From Escherichia phage vB_EcoD_Pubbukkers: a stretch of DNA of 44,476 bases. Positions 9,507 through 40,263 of the stretch are shown here, piece after piece; positions within the stretch are counted from its first letter, which is position 1; each line of letters begins with the position of its first letter. Location: sequence record NC_073068.1. One strand, 5' to 3'. A program made the translations under genes and the position numbers. The notes beneath the pieces were generated by a model. That model was not told the DNA's origin. It was given only the letters and a program-made list of their open reading frames with translations, and ran no database searches.

Positions 9507-9928
9507 TGAGCAATACCGCAATCCGCAAAGCGCTTAACAGCGTGGTTGAAGAGTTATCGGCAAGCCTGAGCACAAGCCAGCGTCCGATTAGGGTTAACTG
9601 GGAGAACGTGAGCGGCGACCACGCAAACGGCAGCGGTGTCTACCTGGAGCCGTACCTGCTACCGGCCCCGACCCAGTTTGTGGGCTTACAGCAGAAGGGT
9701 CGGGTCTATGCTGGCGTATATCAGGTTGCCGTGGTGTTTCCCGCAGGAACTGGAACACAGTACGCGAGCGAACTGGCGGACGCCATCGCTACGTCTGATA
9801 AGTGGCTGGAGGTGAAGATTTCCGGTGCGTCATTTCAGCTTCAGGACGCGCCATACACCAGTTCAGTGATTGAAGACGTTGATCGCGCCCGCATCGTGGT
9901 TACAGTACCCTACACCTGTTGCGCCTGA
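9506..9928 (+). CDS. hypothetical structural protein (tail terminator region)
   Basis: 140 aa; ATG overlaps the stop of the previous gene (TAATG); immediately upstream of the putative major tail gene. Confidence 0.55.
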   Translation: MSNTAIRKALNSVVEELSASLSTSQRPIRVNWENVSGDHANGSGVYLEPYLLPAPTQFVGLQQKGRVYAGVYQVAVVFPAGTGTQYASELADAIATSDKWLEVKISGASFQLQDAPYTSSVIEDVDRARIVVTVPYTCCA

Positions 9929-9989
9929 TTTGGCGCTATTCTGCGCGTGCTGTATCATTAAACCGTATATCTAAACAGGAGCGTTCATT

Positions 9990-10715
9990 ATGGGTTATCA
10001 ACTTCCTAACGGGTCTAGCGTCCAGATTGGGTCCGTACTGGGCAACGGCATCGCTGTTACGGCAGCTACCAACGCCGCCGCGTCGATCTCCGACCTTACG
10101 CAAGGTTGCGTAATTACCTGCGCGGAGTCTCACGGTCTGGTTGTTGGCGACGTTGTTATGTTCACTAAAACCCCGTGGGTCCGTGCGCTGAACCGCGCGT
10201 TCATCGTTGGTAAAGTATCGGGGAACGACGTTACACTGGCGCGCTTCGACACCGAAGACGTCACAAAATACCCGACCGGCGCTTTCAGCGTAGGCACTCC
10301 GGGCGAAGTGGTGAAGGTGTCGAGCTTTATCGACTTCCCTTTCATTACTAACGTTGCCGTGTCTGGTGGCGACCAGCAGACGACTACATTCCAGCCGTTG
10401 CAGGTGAACACCGCAATCAGTCTGAACACCACGAAAAACCCGTTGGTTCAGACTTACACCTTCACCCACGACGAAGAAGACCCGATCCGCCCAATCCTGG
10501 AAGACCTGGACGACACACAGAAAACCACTGTGATTAAGTTCACTAACCCGGCAGCGGCAAGCGGCAAAGGTGAGATCCGTATTTACCCGGCTAAGGTATC
10601 TTTCCAGAAGATTCCGTCCGCTGAAGTAAACAACGTGGAAACAGTACAATCCACTCTGACCATGCAGTCTGATATGGTTATCTACCGTAAGGATCTTGTC
10701 GAGGCATTGTCTTGA
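9990..10715 (+). CDS. major tail (tube) protein, putative
   Basis: 241 aa; directly upstream of the frameshifting chaperone pair and tape measure gene (lambda V-G-GT-H order); followed by a strong terminator. Confidence 0.65.
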   Translation: MGYQLPNGSSVQIGSVLGNGIAVTAATNAAASISDLTQGCVITCAESHGLVVGDVVMFTKTPWVRALNRAFIVGKVSGNDVTLARFDTEDVTKYPTGAFSVGTPGEVVKVSSFIDFPFITNVAVSGGDQQTTTFQPLQVNTAISLNTTKNPLVQTYTFTHDEEDPIRPILEDLDDTQKTTVIKFTNPAAASGKGEIRIYPAKVSFQKIPSAEVNNVETVQSTLTMQSDMVIYRKDLVEALS

Positions 10716-10745
10716 TTTGGTCGCTTAAATAGCGAGTGTTAATAT

Positions 10746-10769
10746 GGGGCCAGCACGGCCCCTTTTTTA
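10746..10769 (+). terminator. rho-independent terminator
   Basis: GGGGCC-agcac-GGCCCC stem followed by TTTTTT after the major tail gene. Confidence 0.75.
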
Positions 10770-10784
10770 TTGGAGAATACTACA

Positions 10785-11147
10785 ATGGCTAAAGCACCAC
10801 TCTTTACACTTGACCCTAAGCCGACCTTTAAGCTGCCGATTGAGATCCCGCGCCCAGGTGAGAACGAACCAGGCAAGATGACTTTTACCGTCCGCCACCG
10901 CCCGATCGACGAATTTTCGCAAACCATGCAGGACACCGAACGAAAGCTGTCGGAATATGACGACAATGACCCGGACGGCTTTAACGTTATGGTCGAGGCC
11001 ATCATGCACGTCGCGGAAGGCTGGAATCTGCCAGACGAATTTAACGCGGAGAACGTCCGGCGCCTGGTGGTCAACTATCCACGCGCGTTCGGGGTGTTCC
11101 ACACGTCGTACTATCTCGAACTGATGGGATTGCGTGAAAAAAACTAA
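10785..11147 (+). CDS. tail assembly chaperone (lambda gpG-like)
   Basis: 120 aa from ATG 10785 (MAKAPLF); acidic; ends with the slippery run GAAAAAAAC just before its stop; position between major tail and tape measure genes. Confidence 0.75.
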   Translation: MAKAPLFTLDPKPTFKLPIEIPRPGENEPGKMTFTVRHRPIDEFSQTMQDTERKLSEYDDNDPDGFNVMVEAIMHVAEGWNLPDEFNAENVRRLVVNYPRAFGVFHTSYYLELMGLREKN

Positions 11148-11461
11148 TTGAGGCGGCGCGACGCTTTTATGGCCCGCCGCCACCCTCCGAAGATTTAGCC
11201 GCGAGTTTATGGGGTGCAGCCCCTGAAGATGTTTGTCCGCCTGTTGCGCTATGGCCCGACAACGCGAAGGTAGTCGCAGTCTTCACAGATTGCTCCACGC
11301 AATGGCGCACCGGTTTTGGTGGCGCATACGGCATCGACTACGGCGTGCTGGAGTGGTTATTTAAGATGCACGGTATCGAAAACGAGCAGCGCGCGTTTAA
11401 AGATATCAAGCTAATGGAGCGAATCGCGCTTGATGAGATGGCGCAGCAGAACCCCGCATAA
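10785..11461 (+). CDS. tail assembly chaperone -1 frameshift fusion product (gpGT-like)
   Basis: The -1 frame is closed by TGA at 11135-11137 and opens exactly at the slippery heptamer A_AAA_AAC (11138-11144), then runs to TAA at 11459-11461 with no in-frame start codon near its beginning; a GGCGGCG/CGCCGCC hairpin (11152-11181) lies 8 nt downstream. Confidence 0.7.
11138..11181 (+). other. programmed -1 ribosomal frameshift site (slippery heptamer plus downstream stem-loop)
   Basis: A_AAA_AAC at 11138-11144 in the chaperone frame; inverted repeat GGCGGCG (11152-11158) / CGCCGCC (11175-11181) downstream. Confidence 0.65.
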
Positions 11462-11595
11462 TGAAGCGGGACAGGCGGGACGTCCCGTTTTGTCCCGCCT
11501 CTGTAAAACTGCATATCTACTCACTTCCACTGCATAAACTCAAAACGGGACAAGCGGGACGTCCCGCTTAGTCCCGCCCTGTAAATGTGCATACC

Positions 11596-11782
11596 TATGC
11601 AGTTTTATTGCATAAACTAAGCGGGACAAAAAGCGGGACAAACAAGGGGCGGGACAAAGCGGGACAGCACCCCGTCCCCGCCAGTGCTGCCGCGGTTTTC
11701 AGCCGATCGGGACAGCGGGACAGCACCCCAGTCTTTCAGACTAGACGGGGGTCAATGGCCCCCCTCGTCTGAGACTGAATAA
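11596..11782. repeat. copy 1 of a ~188-bp duplicated non-coding element (GCGGGACA iterons plus conserved stem-loop)
   Basis: Near-identical to 40076..40263; contains a TATGCA-gttttat-TGCATA palindrome, four tandem GCGGGACA units, two more after a divergent 26-bp segment, and the hairpin AGACGGGGG-loop-CCCCCCTCGTCT (11743-11770). Confidence 0.85.
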
Positions 11783-11845
11783 GGTTTGTTTTGAAATCGC
11801 TGATACAATATCCATCGGCAACTGCATAAAAAAGGGGACTGCATA

Positions 11846-14488
11846 ATGGCAGATCAGGCAGCAGGCATCACGCTAAAGGCTGATGTTGCACAAATCAGAA
11901 CGGCAAATACTGTGCTGGACTCCTTCGCACAGAAATCCGAGAACACAGAAAACAAGGTTAAGAAATTAAACGACACCCTCGGCAAATCCAAAAAGGTGAC
12001 GAGTGACGCCGCGGGCGGAATGGAAAAGCTGGCAAACGAATCGCAGCGCGCCGCCGATGGCATGACGAAACAGGAGCGACTCGCCAACAGGTTAGGCATG
12101 TCGACTAAAAACCTGGGCTTTGCCTCGCGTAACGCCGCATTCCAGTTACAGGATATCGCAGTTACGCTTGAGATGGGGATGCCGGTACACCGCGTTATGC
12201 TTCAGCAGTTACCGCAGCTAACTGGGGCGTTCGGTGGATTGGGTAACACTCTGCGTTATGTTGCTGGCTTCCTCGGTCCAGTTGGGATCGGCCTTGCTGC
12301 GGTAACGGCAACGTTAGGCGTGGGCGTAGCAATTACGTCCCGCGCAGAGAACCAGGTCGCAGCGCTTAACAAGACGCTGGCGCTGTCAGGTAACATTTCC
12401 GGCCTAACGGCAAACCAGATCCTGGTGCTATCCGAGAACGCCGAGCGCATGGGCGGATCATTCCGCAAGACGCGTGACACAATCCAGGCGCTGGCGGCGG
12501 CGGGTGTGAAAGCGGGGGCGGACTTCGGCGCGCTGGCGAAGGTTGTGAATGACTTCGCGAAGGCGTCTAATCAGCCGATCTCTGACGTGGTTGAATCCAT
12601 CTCAAAATTGTCGAACGACCCAGTGGGCGGACTGCGTGCGCTGGCGGATAAGTATCATGTCGTTACCGAGGCGCAGATCCAGCAGGTGCAATCGCTTGTA
12701 GATATGGGGCGTGAAACGGACGCGGTTGCTCTGGCTAACAAAACAGCCGCTGCGTCGTTCTCCAGCATGACCGATGAGGTAAAGTCCAACATGGGTACGC
12801 TTGAGCGGTCGATGAACGTAGTTACATCGGCAGCTAAATCTATGTGGGATGCCATCCTGGATGTGGGCCGCGCGCAGTCCTCGAATGAGTCCGAGATGAA
12901 AGCGCGTGAGTCCTTGCAGCGCATGACCACGGCGTACTATGCCGAGATGAGGGCGGTAAACGCTGCCGGTGGGGTGATGACCGAAGCGCAGAAAGCGCGT
13001 ATTAACATGCTTTACAGCGAACTGGTCGCCCAGGAAAAGGTAGTAGCGTCGCTCACCCTTCGCAACCGTGCCGAGCGAGACAGCGCCAGCGCCGCGGATG
13101 AAGCAGCAAAGGCGAACGAGGAGGCAAACCGCGCCGCCCGCGACCGCGCCGCGTTTGAGAAGGAGTACGCAACCAACGCGAAGCGGCGAGCCGACGAGAT
13201 CGCCCGCCTAAATTTGCTGAATAAGCGCGGTGTTATTAACGAGAAAGAACTAGCCGAGGCGGTGAAGCAGGTCAACGAGCGTTACAAAGACCCCGCGCCG
13301 AAGAAAGCGGCGGCAGTTCGAGTCGATGCCGGGCTGAAAATGCTGGAAGTCGCGCGAAGCGAATTAGCCCAGCTTCGTGAGTCTGGAAAGCAGATCGAAG
13401 CCAACGCATCGACGCAGACCCGCACGCAACGCGCGCAAGCGTCCCTGAACAAGCTGATTGCCGATAATGAGCAGTTAATCACCGCGAGCAAGGAGCGCGC
13501 ACTCACGGCAGCAGAAAAGCAGCAAACGGCGGCGTTCGAGGCGGTTAAATCGGTACGCGAGCAGATCGTCGAAGAAGCCAAATTGCTGGACGCGAAAGAG
13601 AAGCAGATCAAAGCACACGCCCAGGTCGATGCATTCATCAAGAACCAGAACGCCGAGCTAAAAGCCACCGCGGCGGGATATGCGCTTTCCACTCGCGAAG
13701 CGGCTAACCTGCGCGAAGAATTGCAGCTAATTGATCGCCTGAAGCGGGTGGGCGCTAACGATACCGATATTGATCTGGCGGTGTCTAAGCTGCGCGAAGT
13801 GCAGGAAGCACAGACCGGTGCTAACGCCTCGCTATGGGATGGCCTCAGCCGCGGGCTTAAGGATAGCGTTGATGAAATGGGTAACGGCTATACGCAGATG
13901 ACGTCACTCACAAAATTCACGTTCGGCGCTATGCAGGACACGATGAACGAGTTTTTCGAGACTGGCAAGCTGAACGCAAAAGATATGGTTAAGTCCATTC
14001 TGAGCGAATTAATAAAGCTGGCTACCTCGCAGGCATTCAAGTCCATCGTTAGCGCTTTCGGTGGCGACGGCGGCAAAAACGGATTGTTCGGCGCTATCTT
14101 CTCTGGCCTAACTAAGAATGCGGACGGAGGAGCGTACGCAGGGGGCAATCTCGCGGCCTATTCGGGGCAAGTGGTAAGCCAGCCCACCTTTTTCAGTTAC
14201 GGCGTCCAGGCGTTCGCAAAGGGCGCGGGATTGATGGGGGAGGCCGGACCAGAGGCCATCATGCCACTGAAGCGCGGCCCGGACGGCAAACTGGGCGTTG
14301 CCGCTGCCGGTGTAGGCGGAGGGATGATTGTAACGACCAACGTTAACATGGGGACCGGTAAGACGGATACCAGTGTTAGCGGTCCAGACCCGCGCACCGC
14401 GCAGGCGTTCGGAAAGCAAATCACCGAGTCGGTCAAGGCCGAGATCGTGAAGGCGACGAAACCGGGTGGTGTACTTTACAAACGATGA
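11846..14488 (+). CDS. tail tape measure protein
   Basis: 880 aa; long Ala/Gln/Glu-rich predicted helical protein with Gly-rich C-terminal region; lies between the G/GT chaperones and the minor tail genes. Confidence 0.88.
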   Translation: MADQAAGITLKADVAQIRTANTVLDSFAQKSENTENKVKKLNDTLGKSKKVTSDAAGGMEKLANESQRAADGMTKQERLANRLGMSTKNLGFASRNAAFQLQDIAVTLEMGMPVHRVMLQQLPQLTGAFGGLGNTLRYVAGFLGPVGIGLAAVTATLGVGVAITSRAENQVAALNKTLALSGNISGLTANQILVLSENAERMGGSFRKTRDTIQALAAAGVKAGADFGALAKVVNDFAKASNQPISDVVESISKLSNDPVGGLRALADKYHVVTEAQIQQVQSLVDMGRETDAVALANKTAAASFSSMTDEVKSNMGTLERSMNVVTSAAKSMWDAILDVGRAQSSNESEMKARESLQRMTTAYYAEMRAVNAAGGVMTEAQKARINMLYSELVAQEKVVASLTLRNRAERDSASAADEAAKANEEANRAARDRAAFEKEYATNAKRRADEIARLNLLNKRGVINEKELAEAVKQVNERYKDPAPKKAAAVRVDAGLKMLEVARSELAQLRESGKQIEANASTQTRTQRAQASLNKLIADNEQLITASKERALTAAEKQQTAAFEAVKSVREQIVEEAKLLDAKEKQIKAHAQVDAFIKNQNAELKATAAGYALSTREAANLREELQLIDRLKRVGANDTDIDLAVSKLREVQEAQTGANASLWDGLSRGLKDSVDEMGNGYTQMTSLTKFTFGAMQDTMNEFFETGKLNAKDMVKSILSELIKLATSQAFKSIVSAFGGDGGKNGLFGAIFSGLTKNADGGAYAGGNLAAYSGQVVSQPTFFSYGVQAFAKGAGLMGEAGPEAIMPLKRGPDGKLGVAAAGVGGGMIVTTNVNMGTGKTDTSVSGPDPRTAQAFGKQITESVKAEIVKATKPGGVLYKR

Positions 14489-36417: not shown

Positions 36418-36933
36418 TTAATCTTCCAGTTCGAAATAGGTTTCGACGATTTCTTTTAGCTCTTCGTGGAAGTCTTCGACGTCGTCATCTTCCAGCTTGG
36501 CGATTGATTTGATCTCGAACGATTCCAGCAGGTTGTCGAATTCGTCGTTCGCATCGTCGTCATCGCCACCGGCGATAATCGCGGCATACTGTTTGATTTC
36601 GTCGCGCATCTCTGCCAGCGGGTCGGCATCTTTCTTACCTTTGCCTTTCGCCGGTGCTTTCTTAGACTTAGCCGGTTTTTCGTCTTCGGCATCGTCGTCG
36701 TCATCTTCTACGACTTCTTTTTTAGCCTTACCTTTCGCCGGGGATTTTTTAGATTTAGCCGGTTTTTCGTCTTCGGCGTCATCGTCGTCATCTTCGACAA
36801 CTTCTTTTTTGGCCTTAGACGGCTTCTTATCTTCCTGTTTACCAACGGCAGCGCCAACGGTTTCATAATGCTTTGCAATGGTTTCCAGTGCTACTACGCC
36901 GCGAGTGATCAGGTTTACGATTTGCTCAAACAT
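36418..36933 (-). CDS. acidic/basic repeat protein (first gene of the leftward early operon)
   Basis: 171 aa from ATG 36933 (MFEQIVNLITRG) with RBS GGAG; two tandem ~28-aa repeats (KKEVVEDDDDDAEDEKPAKSKKxPAKGKxKK) and an acidic C-terminus; has its own promoter and terminator. Confidence 0.6.
   Translation of the reverse strand: MFEQIVNLITRGVVALETIAKHYETVGAAVGKQEDKKPSKAKKEVVEDDDDDAEDEKPAKSKKSPAKGKAKKEVVEDDDDDAEDEKPAKSKKAPAKGKGKKDADPLAEMRDEIKQYAAIIAGGDDDDANDEFDNLLESFEIKSIAKLEDDDVEDFHEELKEIVETYFELED
36635..36814. repeat. tandem ~90-bp repeat (2 units) inside the acidic-protein gene
   Basis: Units 36635-36727 and 36728-36814 are imperfect copies (ttacctttcgccgg...agccggtttttcgtcttcggc...atcgtcgtcatcttc...cttcttttttRgcc). 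Confidence 0.7.
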
Positions 36934-37129
36934 GGTATATCTCCGATTGGTTAAGTTTAGGTGTCGGCAGTTAACTTCGTCGGTGGCCTTAACATATTGC
37001 CAGGTTACGCGTTCTCCCGTTCGGGTAGTGGACCTGGTTATATAATCACGGTTGGGAATCCTGACACTTCGATCCGGCCCCTGCGTTACCCCTCTCCAGT
37101 TTGCGTCCTGCATCCTGTCGACGGGGTGA

Positions 37130-37170: not shown

Positions 37171-37206
37171 AAAAAAAAAAGCGCCGAGGCAAAATGCGAC
37201 GGCGCT
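37171..37206 (-). terminator. strong rho-independent terminator on minus strand (A10 on plus = U10 on transcript)
   Basis: On the minus strand AGCGCCG-13 nt loop-CGGCGCU followed by ten U; stem at plus 37180-37206. Confidence 0.65.
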
Positions 37207-37335: not shown

Positions 37336-37665
37336 ATGAATGTAAACGACGCAATCGAAATGTTAACGAAGACTGTTTGCAGTGAGACTAGCCGGTCCTG
37401 GGCTTATACCGATGCCGTTGGGGAGGTGTTATTTGAAATCGAACGACTGCGCAGTGTCGAAAAAGAATTACGCGCCAGGCTGGAATTGCTCAACGGTACG
37501 GCGGCCAGCAAGCTGCAAAAGCACAATGAAGAAATGGAAGAATACAAAAAGCAGGTTATCCGTTTGCGCGCCGAGGGCAAATCCTGGGCGATGATTGCCG
37601 AGTTGACCGGAATTAATCAGAGCACAGTGCGCTCCTGGGTACGCAATAATAAAACTTCTAAGTAA
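37336..37665 (+). CDS. HTH DNA-binding protein (putative transcriptional regulator)
   Basis: 109 aa; C-terminal helix-turn-helix-like GKSWAMIAELTGINQSTVRSWVR; first gene of the rightward arm; perfect -35 TTGACA at 37276-37281 upstream. Confidence 0.55.
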   Translation: MNVNDAIEMLTKTVCSETSRSWAYTDAVGEVLFEIERLRSVEKELRARLELLNGTAASKLQKHNEEMEEYKKQVIRLRAEGKSWAMIAELTGINQSTVRSWVRNNKTSK

Positions 37666-40015: not shown

Positions 40016-40075
40016 ATTTTGCGTGCTTTTAGCTGGTCGTATTGGTTGCCGTGTAGTGTAAATATAATGAATAGT

Positions 40076-40263
40076 TATGCAGTTTTATTGCATAAAGTAA
40101 GCGGGACAAAAAGCGGGACAGACCAGGGGCGGGACAAAGCGGGACAGCACCCCTGTCCCGCCCCGGATGACGCGGCCTGGCGAGGAGCGGGACAGCGGGA
40201 CAGCACCCCAGTCTTTCAGACTAGACGGGGGGTCTGGCACCCCCCTCGTCTGAGACTGAATAA
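40076..40263. repeat. copy 2 of the ~188-bp duplicated element (GCGGGACA iterons plus conserved stem-loop)
   Basis: Aligns with 11596-11782: same TATGCA...TGCATA palindrome, four plus two GCGGGACA units and the same stem (loop sequence differs). Confidence 0.85.

Follow-up and report, generated by a model that had tools for sequence, protein, structure and literature searches.

In phage lambda, the major tail gene and the tape measure gene are separated by two overlapping open reading frames (ORFs). The second of these (T) uses the -1 frame without a start codon of its own, and a slippery heptamer of the form X_XXY_YYZ is found at the end of the first ORF (G). The outcome is an abundant short product (G) and a rare extended product (GT). 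The -1 frameshift that produces GT was reportedly described by Levin et al. in 1993 and by Xu, Hendrix and Duda in 2004, 2013, and 2014. As reviewed in PMC5009743, a G:GT ratio of about 30:1 is needed; the partner of G is the tape measure protein, and that of T is the tube protein. Here we consider Escherichia phage vB_EcoD_Pubbukkers (NC_073068.1), which belongs to the genus Dhillonvirus (HK578-like siphophages of E. coli). We analyzed a stretch of 44,476 nucleotides (nt), which we will call the window. From its sequence, we conclude that the tail-assembly chaperone gene of this phage very probably contains a programmed -1 ribosomal frameshift of the lambda G/GT type.

The Pubbukkers locus is laid out like that of lambda. 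Pfam hits and the ORF map give a local order, from 5' to 3', of the major tail gene, G, T, and the tape measure gene. T overlaps G in an alternative frame and lacks its own start, an in-phase slippery sequence lies in the overlap, and both the arrangement and the slip site are conserved despite divergence. As in lambda, an abundant short product and a rare extended one are predicted. A first-pass annotation of the window had already proposed the G/GT arrangement of long-tailed phages, and this is supported by the gene order, the Phage_TAC_4 and DUF1799 domains, the conserved heptamer, and a joined coding sequence (CDS) in the record of Serratia phage Scapp. The first-pass annotation also described the extension as T-like. 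This description suits its position and its likely function, but it does not extend to kinship: profile comparison detected no homology to gpG or gpT of lambda (hhalign probability of 0.3% for G and 1.0% for T), so the likeness is positional and functional only. The two loci also differ in their details. The heptamer is G_GGA_AAG in lambda and A_AAA_AAC in Pubbukkers; the 0-frame stop is five codons past the heptamer in lambda, whereas it abuts the heptamer in Pubbukkers; and Pubbukkers has a hairpin downstream. Also, T overlaps the next gene (H) in lambda, while in Pubbukkers the stop of T is separated from the ATG of the tape measure gene by a gap of 385 nt, which is filled with repeats and contains a terminator.

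Pubbukkers G (10785..11147, + strand) encodes 120 amino acids, with GGAG located 9 nt 5' of the ATG and a C-terminus of LREKN, followed by TAA. The protein matches Phage_TAC_4 in Pfam (PF08748, formerly DUF1789) with E = 1.4e-23 (83.9 bits, against a gathering cut-off of 21.1). This match covers residues 1-120 of G and positions 1-124 of the 124 in the profile. G also matches phrog_569 (E = 9.8e-41). Across 18 distinct sequences from the Dhillonvirus group, the variable sites in G fall 10/6/77 at codon positions 1/2/3.

The 3' end of G reads CGT GAA AAA AAC TAA, with these last four codons beginning at 11136 (GAA), 11139 (AAA), 11142 (AAC), and 11145 (TAA). The slippery heptamer A_AAA_AAC (11138..11144, + strand) is thus in the canonical X_XXY_YYZ phase, with the Lys codon AAA for the P site and the Asn codon AAC for the A site, and the 0-frame TAA stop (11145..11147, + strand) adjoins it. 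AAAAAAC has a single copy on the + strand across the 44.5-kb window. The -1 frame is closed by TGA at 11135..11137 (+ strand) and is open from 11138 to the TAA at 11459-11461. Because of the upstream TGA, a productive -1 shift in Pubbukkers is confined to 11138-11147. Most of this anatomy was described in the first-pass annotation, and we read the same features directly in the sequence: the chaperone ORF that ends with GAA-AAA-AAC-TAA, the heptamer in a run of A, its phase, and the -1 frame that is blocked by TGA, opens exactly at the heptamer, and continues to 11461. The length that it gave for the -1 ORF (106 codons) needs a small correction, as there are 107 sense codons from 11138 and 105 after the shift (11144-11458). 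The upstream TGA limit is not kept outside the Dhillonvirus group. The overlap between G and the -1 ORF is 10 nt in the window and ranges from 10 to 376 nt in relatives; among the sequences compared, a -1 frame that opens exactly at the heptamer is peculiar to this phage group. We did not find a Shine-Dalgarno-like stimulator at 10-14 nt 5' of the heptamer. The only candidate was GGGA at 11126-11129, which is 8 nt upstream; it belongs to Met-Gly codons, and position 11129 is variable.

The T extension (11144..11461, + strand, -1 frame) comprises 105 codons and a TAA stop. As the first-pass annotation had noted, there is no start codon near the beginning of the -1 ORF: the earliest ATG, GTG, or TTG is the GTG at 11345, which is codon 70 and is preceded by 69 codons without any canonical start. 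The sole earlier near-cognate start is ATT at 11147. The -1 product matches DUF1799 (PF08809) over the full profile (positions 1-80 of 80; E = 2.8e-21; 76 bits, cut-off 26). Since this domain begins at residue 25 of the -1 stretch and the GTG at codon 70 falls inside it, the domain cannot be made from the first canonical start. Within T, the variable sites in the 18 Dhillonvirus-group sequences fall 22/9/69 by codon position in the -1 frame, which is a signature of purifying selection on this frame. An AlphaFold model of T, with 57 homologues as input, has a mean predicted local distance difference test score (pLDDT) of 94 and a predicted template modeling score (pTM) of 0.81; it consists of helices and one beta-hairpin. 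The Pfam E-value, the codon-position bias, and the confident model together rule out a chance ORF. We also ruled out a +1 shift, as no more than 8 codons of the +1 frame are open at the junction.

The GT fusion is predicted to have 225 amino acids and a mass of 25.6 kDa, in agreement with the size of about 25 kDa given in the first-pass annotation, and T is expected to be made solely as its C-terminal portion. Several observations bear on whether G and T are parts of one protein. The 213-position profile phrog_17368 matches G on positions 1-107 and T on positions 150-212, so this family holds proteins with both parts. The top structural matches of the T model were the tape measure chaperones of Serratia phage Scapp (236 amino acids) and Klebsiella phage Solomon (210 amino acids), with 106-108 aligned columns in the C-terminal parts of those chaperones. 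Both proteins are long enough to be GT fusions, and the one from Scapp is annotated as a frameshift product. We also searched cluster representatives of DUF1799, using the T part alone as the query. The best 150 of the 1113 representatives all had 150 amino acids or fewer, and none was an in-frame fusion of G and T. In-frame fusions are thus not the usual arrangement, consistent with two products being required. When the conceptual fusion was the query, a homologue search gave 3 matches.

The end of G is conserved far beyond Dhillonvirus. We selected loci by their G proteins, down to 35% identity, from viral contigs and bacterial genomes (including prophages of Enterobacter, Klebsiella, Providencia, and Chromobacterium). 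Of these 97 loci, 96 have a G that ends with GAAAAAAAC, and TAA or TGA comes immediately after it. The Arg codon that precedes it varies freely (CGC, CGT, CGG, and CGA all occur), and in the loci with the heptamer, the synonymous codons GAG, AAG, and AAT never occur among the last three codons of G. The only locus without the heptamer is from Leclercia adecarboxylata (LR590464); there, the match covers only residues 4-100 and the end of the ORF differs, and it may be a degraded prophage copy. An independent selection of loci, solely by motifs in the T domain, gave AAAAAAC and a stop in 79 of 79 cases, a few of which have CAA instead of GAA. In every locus that carries the heptamer, TAA or TGA follows it directly.

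More distant relatives retain the signal in altered forms. T1-like phages (Drexlerviridae: JMPW2, SRT8, JLBYU26, Sephi301i, and ZL19) have GTA or GCA followed by AAA AAC TAA. G_GGA_AAC TGA occupies the same position in Ralstonia phages Dina and YO009_2 and in Pseudomonas phage phiAH14a, and Synechococcus phage S-CBS1 has A_AAA_AAC TGA. A_AAG or A_AAA is found in Pectobacterium phage Sabo, phiEB49, ATCEA85, a Webervirus, and Serratia phage Scapp, where the stop comes 0-1 codon later. Some DUF1799 representatives have gene calls that extend upstream past the junction, and in the -1 frame they read KKL (8 cases) or GKL (5 cases). These are the translations of A_AAA_AAC and of G_GGA_AAC, as predicted. 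Conservation of the -1 frame protein (LIxxA...Y..PP) begins at the first codon after the heptamer. Finally, the Scapp record includes a joined CDS labeled "Tape Measure Chaperone Frameshift Product," so at least one member of the Phage_TAC_4 / DUF1799 family already has an annotated frameshift product. The Pubbukkers locus belongs to this family, which is common to Drexlerviridae, Scapp, and many prophages.

Some points weigh against a programmed frameshift. A_AAA_AAC is weak in E. coli (PMC4066793), and the curators of HK578, the type species, annotated T as a separate CDS with a non-canonical ATT start (JQ086375 10795-11109, equivalent to 11147-11461 in the window). The HK578 annotation implies that T is a separate protein of about 104 amino acids, which would be made without any frameshift, by initiation or by termination-reinitiation at ATT 11147-11149. 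This codon overlaps the stop of G (TAATT), it is the sole near-cognate start near the beginning of the -1 ORF, and overlapping stop and start codons can couple translation. We consider separate translation very improbable, because the codon is not kept as a start (in homologues it is ATA, ATC, AAA, AAG, ACC, or TCC) while the heptamer that lies 3-9 nt upstream does not vary, not even at synonymous positions. No Shine-Dalgarno sequence lies ahead of the ATT, as the sequence upstream is GAAAAAAAC. Reinitiation also leaves unexplained why distant homologues have the classical G_GGA_AAC in place of A_AAA_AAC.

The homologues also bear on whether the slippage is by the ribosome or by RNA polymerase. 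The A7 run (11137-11143) could acquire an extra A in a fraction of mRNAs, whose normal translation would give GT: one added A causes the same change of frame, and runs of A are known sites of slippage in bacteria (Baranov et al. 2005, cited in PMC4066793). Yet some homologues have just 6 A (GTA AAA AAC in the T1-like phages) or lack a run altogether (G_GGA_AAC or A_AAG) at the shift site, which favors the ribosome. What is conserved is the codon-phased X_XXY_YYZ and its stop, not the length of the run. Besides, E. coli RNA polymerase requires about 9 or more A or T for efficient slippage. Slippage during transcription thus seems highly unlikely to be the source of GT, and a ribosomal frameshift is the explanation that we adopt below.

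Downstream of the heptamer there is a stem-loop (11152..11181, + strand), in which GGCGGCG at 11152-11158 pairs with CGCCGCC at 11175-11181. This forms a 7-bp stem with a 16-nt loop. The first-pass annotation had reported these GC-rich arms, and we found them as described; it placed the hairpin 8 nt downstream, but the spacer is 7 nt (11145-11151) and the stem begins at the 8th nucleotide. The hairpin is a candidate for the 3' structure of a stimulated -1 frameshift cassette of the dnaX or IS911 type, in which such a structure follows the heptamer at 5-9 nt; the evidence, given below, points both ways. We think it fairly likely, from comparisons of sequences, that this hairpin is a lineage-specific stimulator of frameshifting. 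Across the 18 Dhillonvirus-group genomes, 14 of 15 consecutive synonymous sites from 11138 to 11179 (the heptamer, spacer, stem, and loop) are invariant, while 65% of synonymous sites vary overall; just 2 of 20000 permutations gave a window as invariant as this. A relative with 62% identity keeps the stem by means of one G-U pair and has one additional C-G pair. In the T1-like phages, a stem occupies precisely this register (+8..+14 with +31..+37), with U-A pairs in place of C-G and G-C at the inner two positions, and the Ralstonia phages keep 5 of the 7 stem pairs.

We also examined covariation in 23 diverse sequences, which are mutually related. In these, 75.2% of the stem cells are paired, as compared to 32-60% if the partner is slid by 1-3 columns, and both sides change in 4 of the 7 stem pairs. 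The score for covariation is 0.256, versus 0.16 or less for the slid controls and 0.116 for shuffles (0 of 500 reach the observed score).

It is also conceivable, although we find it the more doubtful reading, that the frameshift is genuine and the hairpin is a mere by-product of the codons for Glu-Ala-Ala and Pro-Pro-Pro, without any stimulating role. The arms do encode conserved Ala/Arg and Pro-Pro with preferred codons: GCG is the preferred codon for Ala in E. coli, and CCG is the preferred codon for Pro. Several results count against stimulation. The predicted fold (-17.1 kcal/mol) is no better than shuffled sequences (z = -1.17; 25 of 200 shuffles fold at least as well), and the prediction changes to another structure when longer flanking context is included. 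A comparable stem is missing from many homologues that carry the same heptamer, including the Enterobacter-prophage clade, Providencia, Chromobacterium, ATCEA85, and phiEB49. And in lambda, the G/GT frameshift is said to need no downstream structure (Levin et al. 1993). Against a mere by-product stand the invariance of the synonymous sites, the relative that retains its stem by a G-U pair and gains a C-G pair, the compensatory U-A pairs in the same register of the T1-like phages, and the excess pairing and covariation across the 23 sequences. Because the hairpin is not universal in the family, we view the putative stimulator as an accessory element that lies outside the conserved core signal.

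We predict that the frameshift works as follows. Most ribosomes would translate 10785-11144 and stop at TAA 11145, which gives the 120-amino-acid, 14-kDa G protein. A minority would slip back by one base on A_AAA_AAC (11138-11144). The peptidyl-tRNA-Lys would move from AAA to AAA, and the tRNA-Asn would move from AAC to AAA, with two of its three positions re-paired. The shifted ribosomes would continue in the -1 frame from CTA at 11144 to 11458 and produce the 225-amino-acid GT. Because the stop always adjoins the heptamer, so that the A site would be awaiting release factor, a slip of tRNA-Asn in the P site, with the stop next in line, is a possible alternative to the tandem slip. Either route should give the junction REKN-LIEAARR, while a slip of tRNA-Lys alone on A_AAA should give REKK-LIEAARR.

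The inefficiency of this type of heptamer in E. coli would suit a low GT:G ratio, and the stem-loop 7 nt downstream would probably raise or set that ratio. Such heptamers are nonetheless the third and fourth commonest motifs in elements of the IS1 and IS3 families (PMC4066793). We tentatively raise a further idea, which we consider possible but rather unlikely: X_XXA_AAC, the abutting stop, and (in Dhillonvirus and Drexlerviridae, the virulent lineages on E. coli) the hairpin at +8 to +37 might form a composite signal that acts by a "shifty stop" mechanism. A pause of the ribosome, with tRNA-Asn in the P site and the stop in the A site, would then be followed by a slip of the P-site tRNA, unlike in the classical two-tRNA slip. 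The GT:G ratio would then be set by competition between release factor and the hairpin.

If the locus behaves as in lambda, the part that G and GT share would coat the tape measure protein, the T part would bring in the tail tube protein, and neither G nor GT would be found in the virion. Given the lack of profile homology to lambda G or T, this assignment of binding partners is by analogy, and that lack is a point against it. The tape measure product of Pubbukkers is the presumed partner that is bound by G and GT.

Several other systems are informative. An annotated precedent is Scapp (CPT_Scapp_029/030), which has a homologous G (C-terminus ELMGTREK), a DUF1799-type T (the top structural match, at 32% identity), the same gene order, and terminators annotated on both sides of the pair. 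Scapp differs in its slip site, which is A_AAG (GAA AAG TAT TAA), and its 0-frame has one more codon ahead of the stop. It also belongs to another genus and has another host. The "tape measure chaperone" pairs of T1-like phages have a homologous T (33-39% identity), A_AAA_AAC directly followed by TAA, and a hairpin in the same register (+8 to +37 after the heptamer). They differ in having 6 A rather than 7 and in the inner pairs of the stem. The T1-like records that we inspected usually list the two genes as separate features and do not join them.

The IS1 InsAB' transposase relies on the same A_AAA_AAC in E. coli, where it gives a proven low-efficiency -1 frameshift and a rare fusion (PMC4066793). 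The proteins and the biology are unrelated, and IS1 has no established stimulator. In Acinetobacter phage Loki (gp12/gp13), AAAAAAC adjoins the stop of the chaperone gene and was proposed as a G/GT site (PMC5313236). The structure search with the T model matched the Loki fusion weakly (rank 22, E = 0.63). Loki is distant at best, and it has an extra gene between the chaperones and the tape measure gene.

Public annotations of Dhillonvirus genomes generally miss T and do not agree with one another in this region. None of the records that we inspected in detail (Opt212, SECphi18, and HK578) has a joined frameshift CDS. In a sample of 60 Dhillonvirus records, the stretch 11150-11340 is featureless or bears only a "hypothetical protein," and the same is true of the first two-thirds of the T ORF, which is either unannotated or listed as a hypothetical protein. 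Besides the ATT-started ORF in HK578, the calls include a 55-amino-acid ORF on the opposite strand in SECphi18 (window 11167-11334, minus strand), along with small fragments. A literature search found no description of a frameshift for Dhillonvirus or HK578. One paper on Dhillonvirus mentions a "frameshift," but it concerns Ksap1 escape mutants and is unrelated.

The Pubbukkers site is a further, largely unannotated instance of a very well known mechanism, and it is mainly an annotation gap. Because the inspected Dhillonvirus records lack a joined CDS, the predicted 25.6-kDa GT is missing from their proteomes. These proteomes are used in studies of phage engineering, host range, and defense, with model E. 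coli phages that include the BASEL collection and SECphi18. Biologically, one more lineage that follows the G/GT rule adds little. Modest points of interest are the low-efficiency heptamers of the IS1-family type, the stop that always abuts the slip site, and the possible conserved stimulatory hairpin that T1-like phages also have.

The genes that flank the pair are readily identified. The major tail (tube) protein gene (9990..10715, + strand) matches Phage_tail_3 in Pfam (E = 1.4e-32) and is annotated as the major tail protein in related records. The tape measure protein gene (11846..14488, + strand) encodes 880 amino acids and matches TMP_2 (E = 3.1e-44) and Tape_meas_lam_C (E = 5.3e-14). 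The assignment to Dhillonvirus is clear from the region 9900-12000 of the window, which is 95-98.6% identical to over 140 genomes of E. coli phages of this genus, including HK578, SECphi18, several BASEL phages, and vB_EcoD_Teewinot.

Terminator-like hairpins lie on both sides of the G/GT unit. Upstream, between the tail tube gene and G, a terminator scan found a strong hairpin that resembles an intrinsic terminator (10746..10768, + strand; GGGGCC-AGCAC-GGCCCC followed by a run of T) and that presumably acts as one. Just after the stop of T, the palindrome CGGGACGTCCCG followed by TTTT (11476..11493, + strand) corresponds to the annotated rho-independent terminator of HK578, which we mapped onto the window. 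Since the chaperone pair of Scapp is also flanked by annotated terminators, this arrangement suggests that transcriptional attenuation helps to set the stoichiometry of the tube protein, the chaperone, and the tape measure protein.

The gap between T and the tape measure gene (11461-11846) contains 7 GCGGGACA octamers in both orientations, the palindrome GCGGGACGTCCCGC twice, and repeats of ACTGCATAAA. Across the whole window, there are 17 of the GCGGGACA octamers, as compared to an expectation of 2.0. A module of about 170 nt within this gap (11585-11755) is duplicated at 40065-40235 with 88% identity, and both copies are intergenic. A scan of 10700-11900 against Rfam found no family. The repeats may be a regulator-binding or promoter module. 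The G/GT unit, which is bracketed by terminators and trailed by the duplicated GCGGGACA-repeat module, may be expressed apart from the tape measure gene.

We noticed two other things. The longest homopolymer in the window is a run of 10 A at 37171-37180, which is flanked by one ORF on the minus strand (36418-37113) and another on the plus strand (37336-37665). We considered this run as a second recoding site and rejected it, as it is intergenic. Also, four UNVERIFIED "Campylobacter phage" entries in GenBank (MG065648, MG065636, MG065687, and MG065663) contain genomes of Dhillonvirus or Drexlerviridae that are typical of E. coli, and their host labels are probably wrong.

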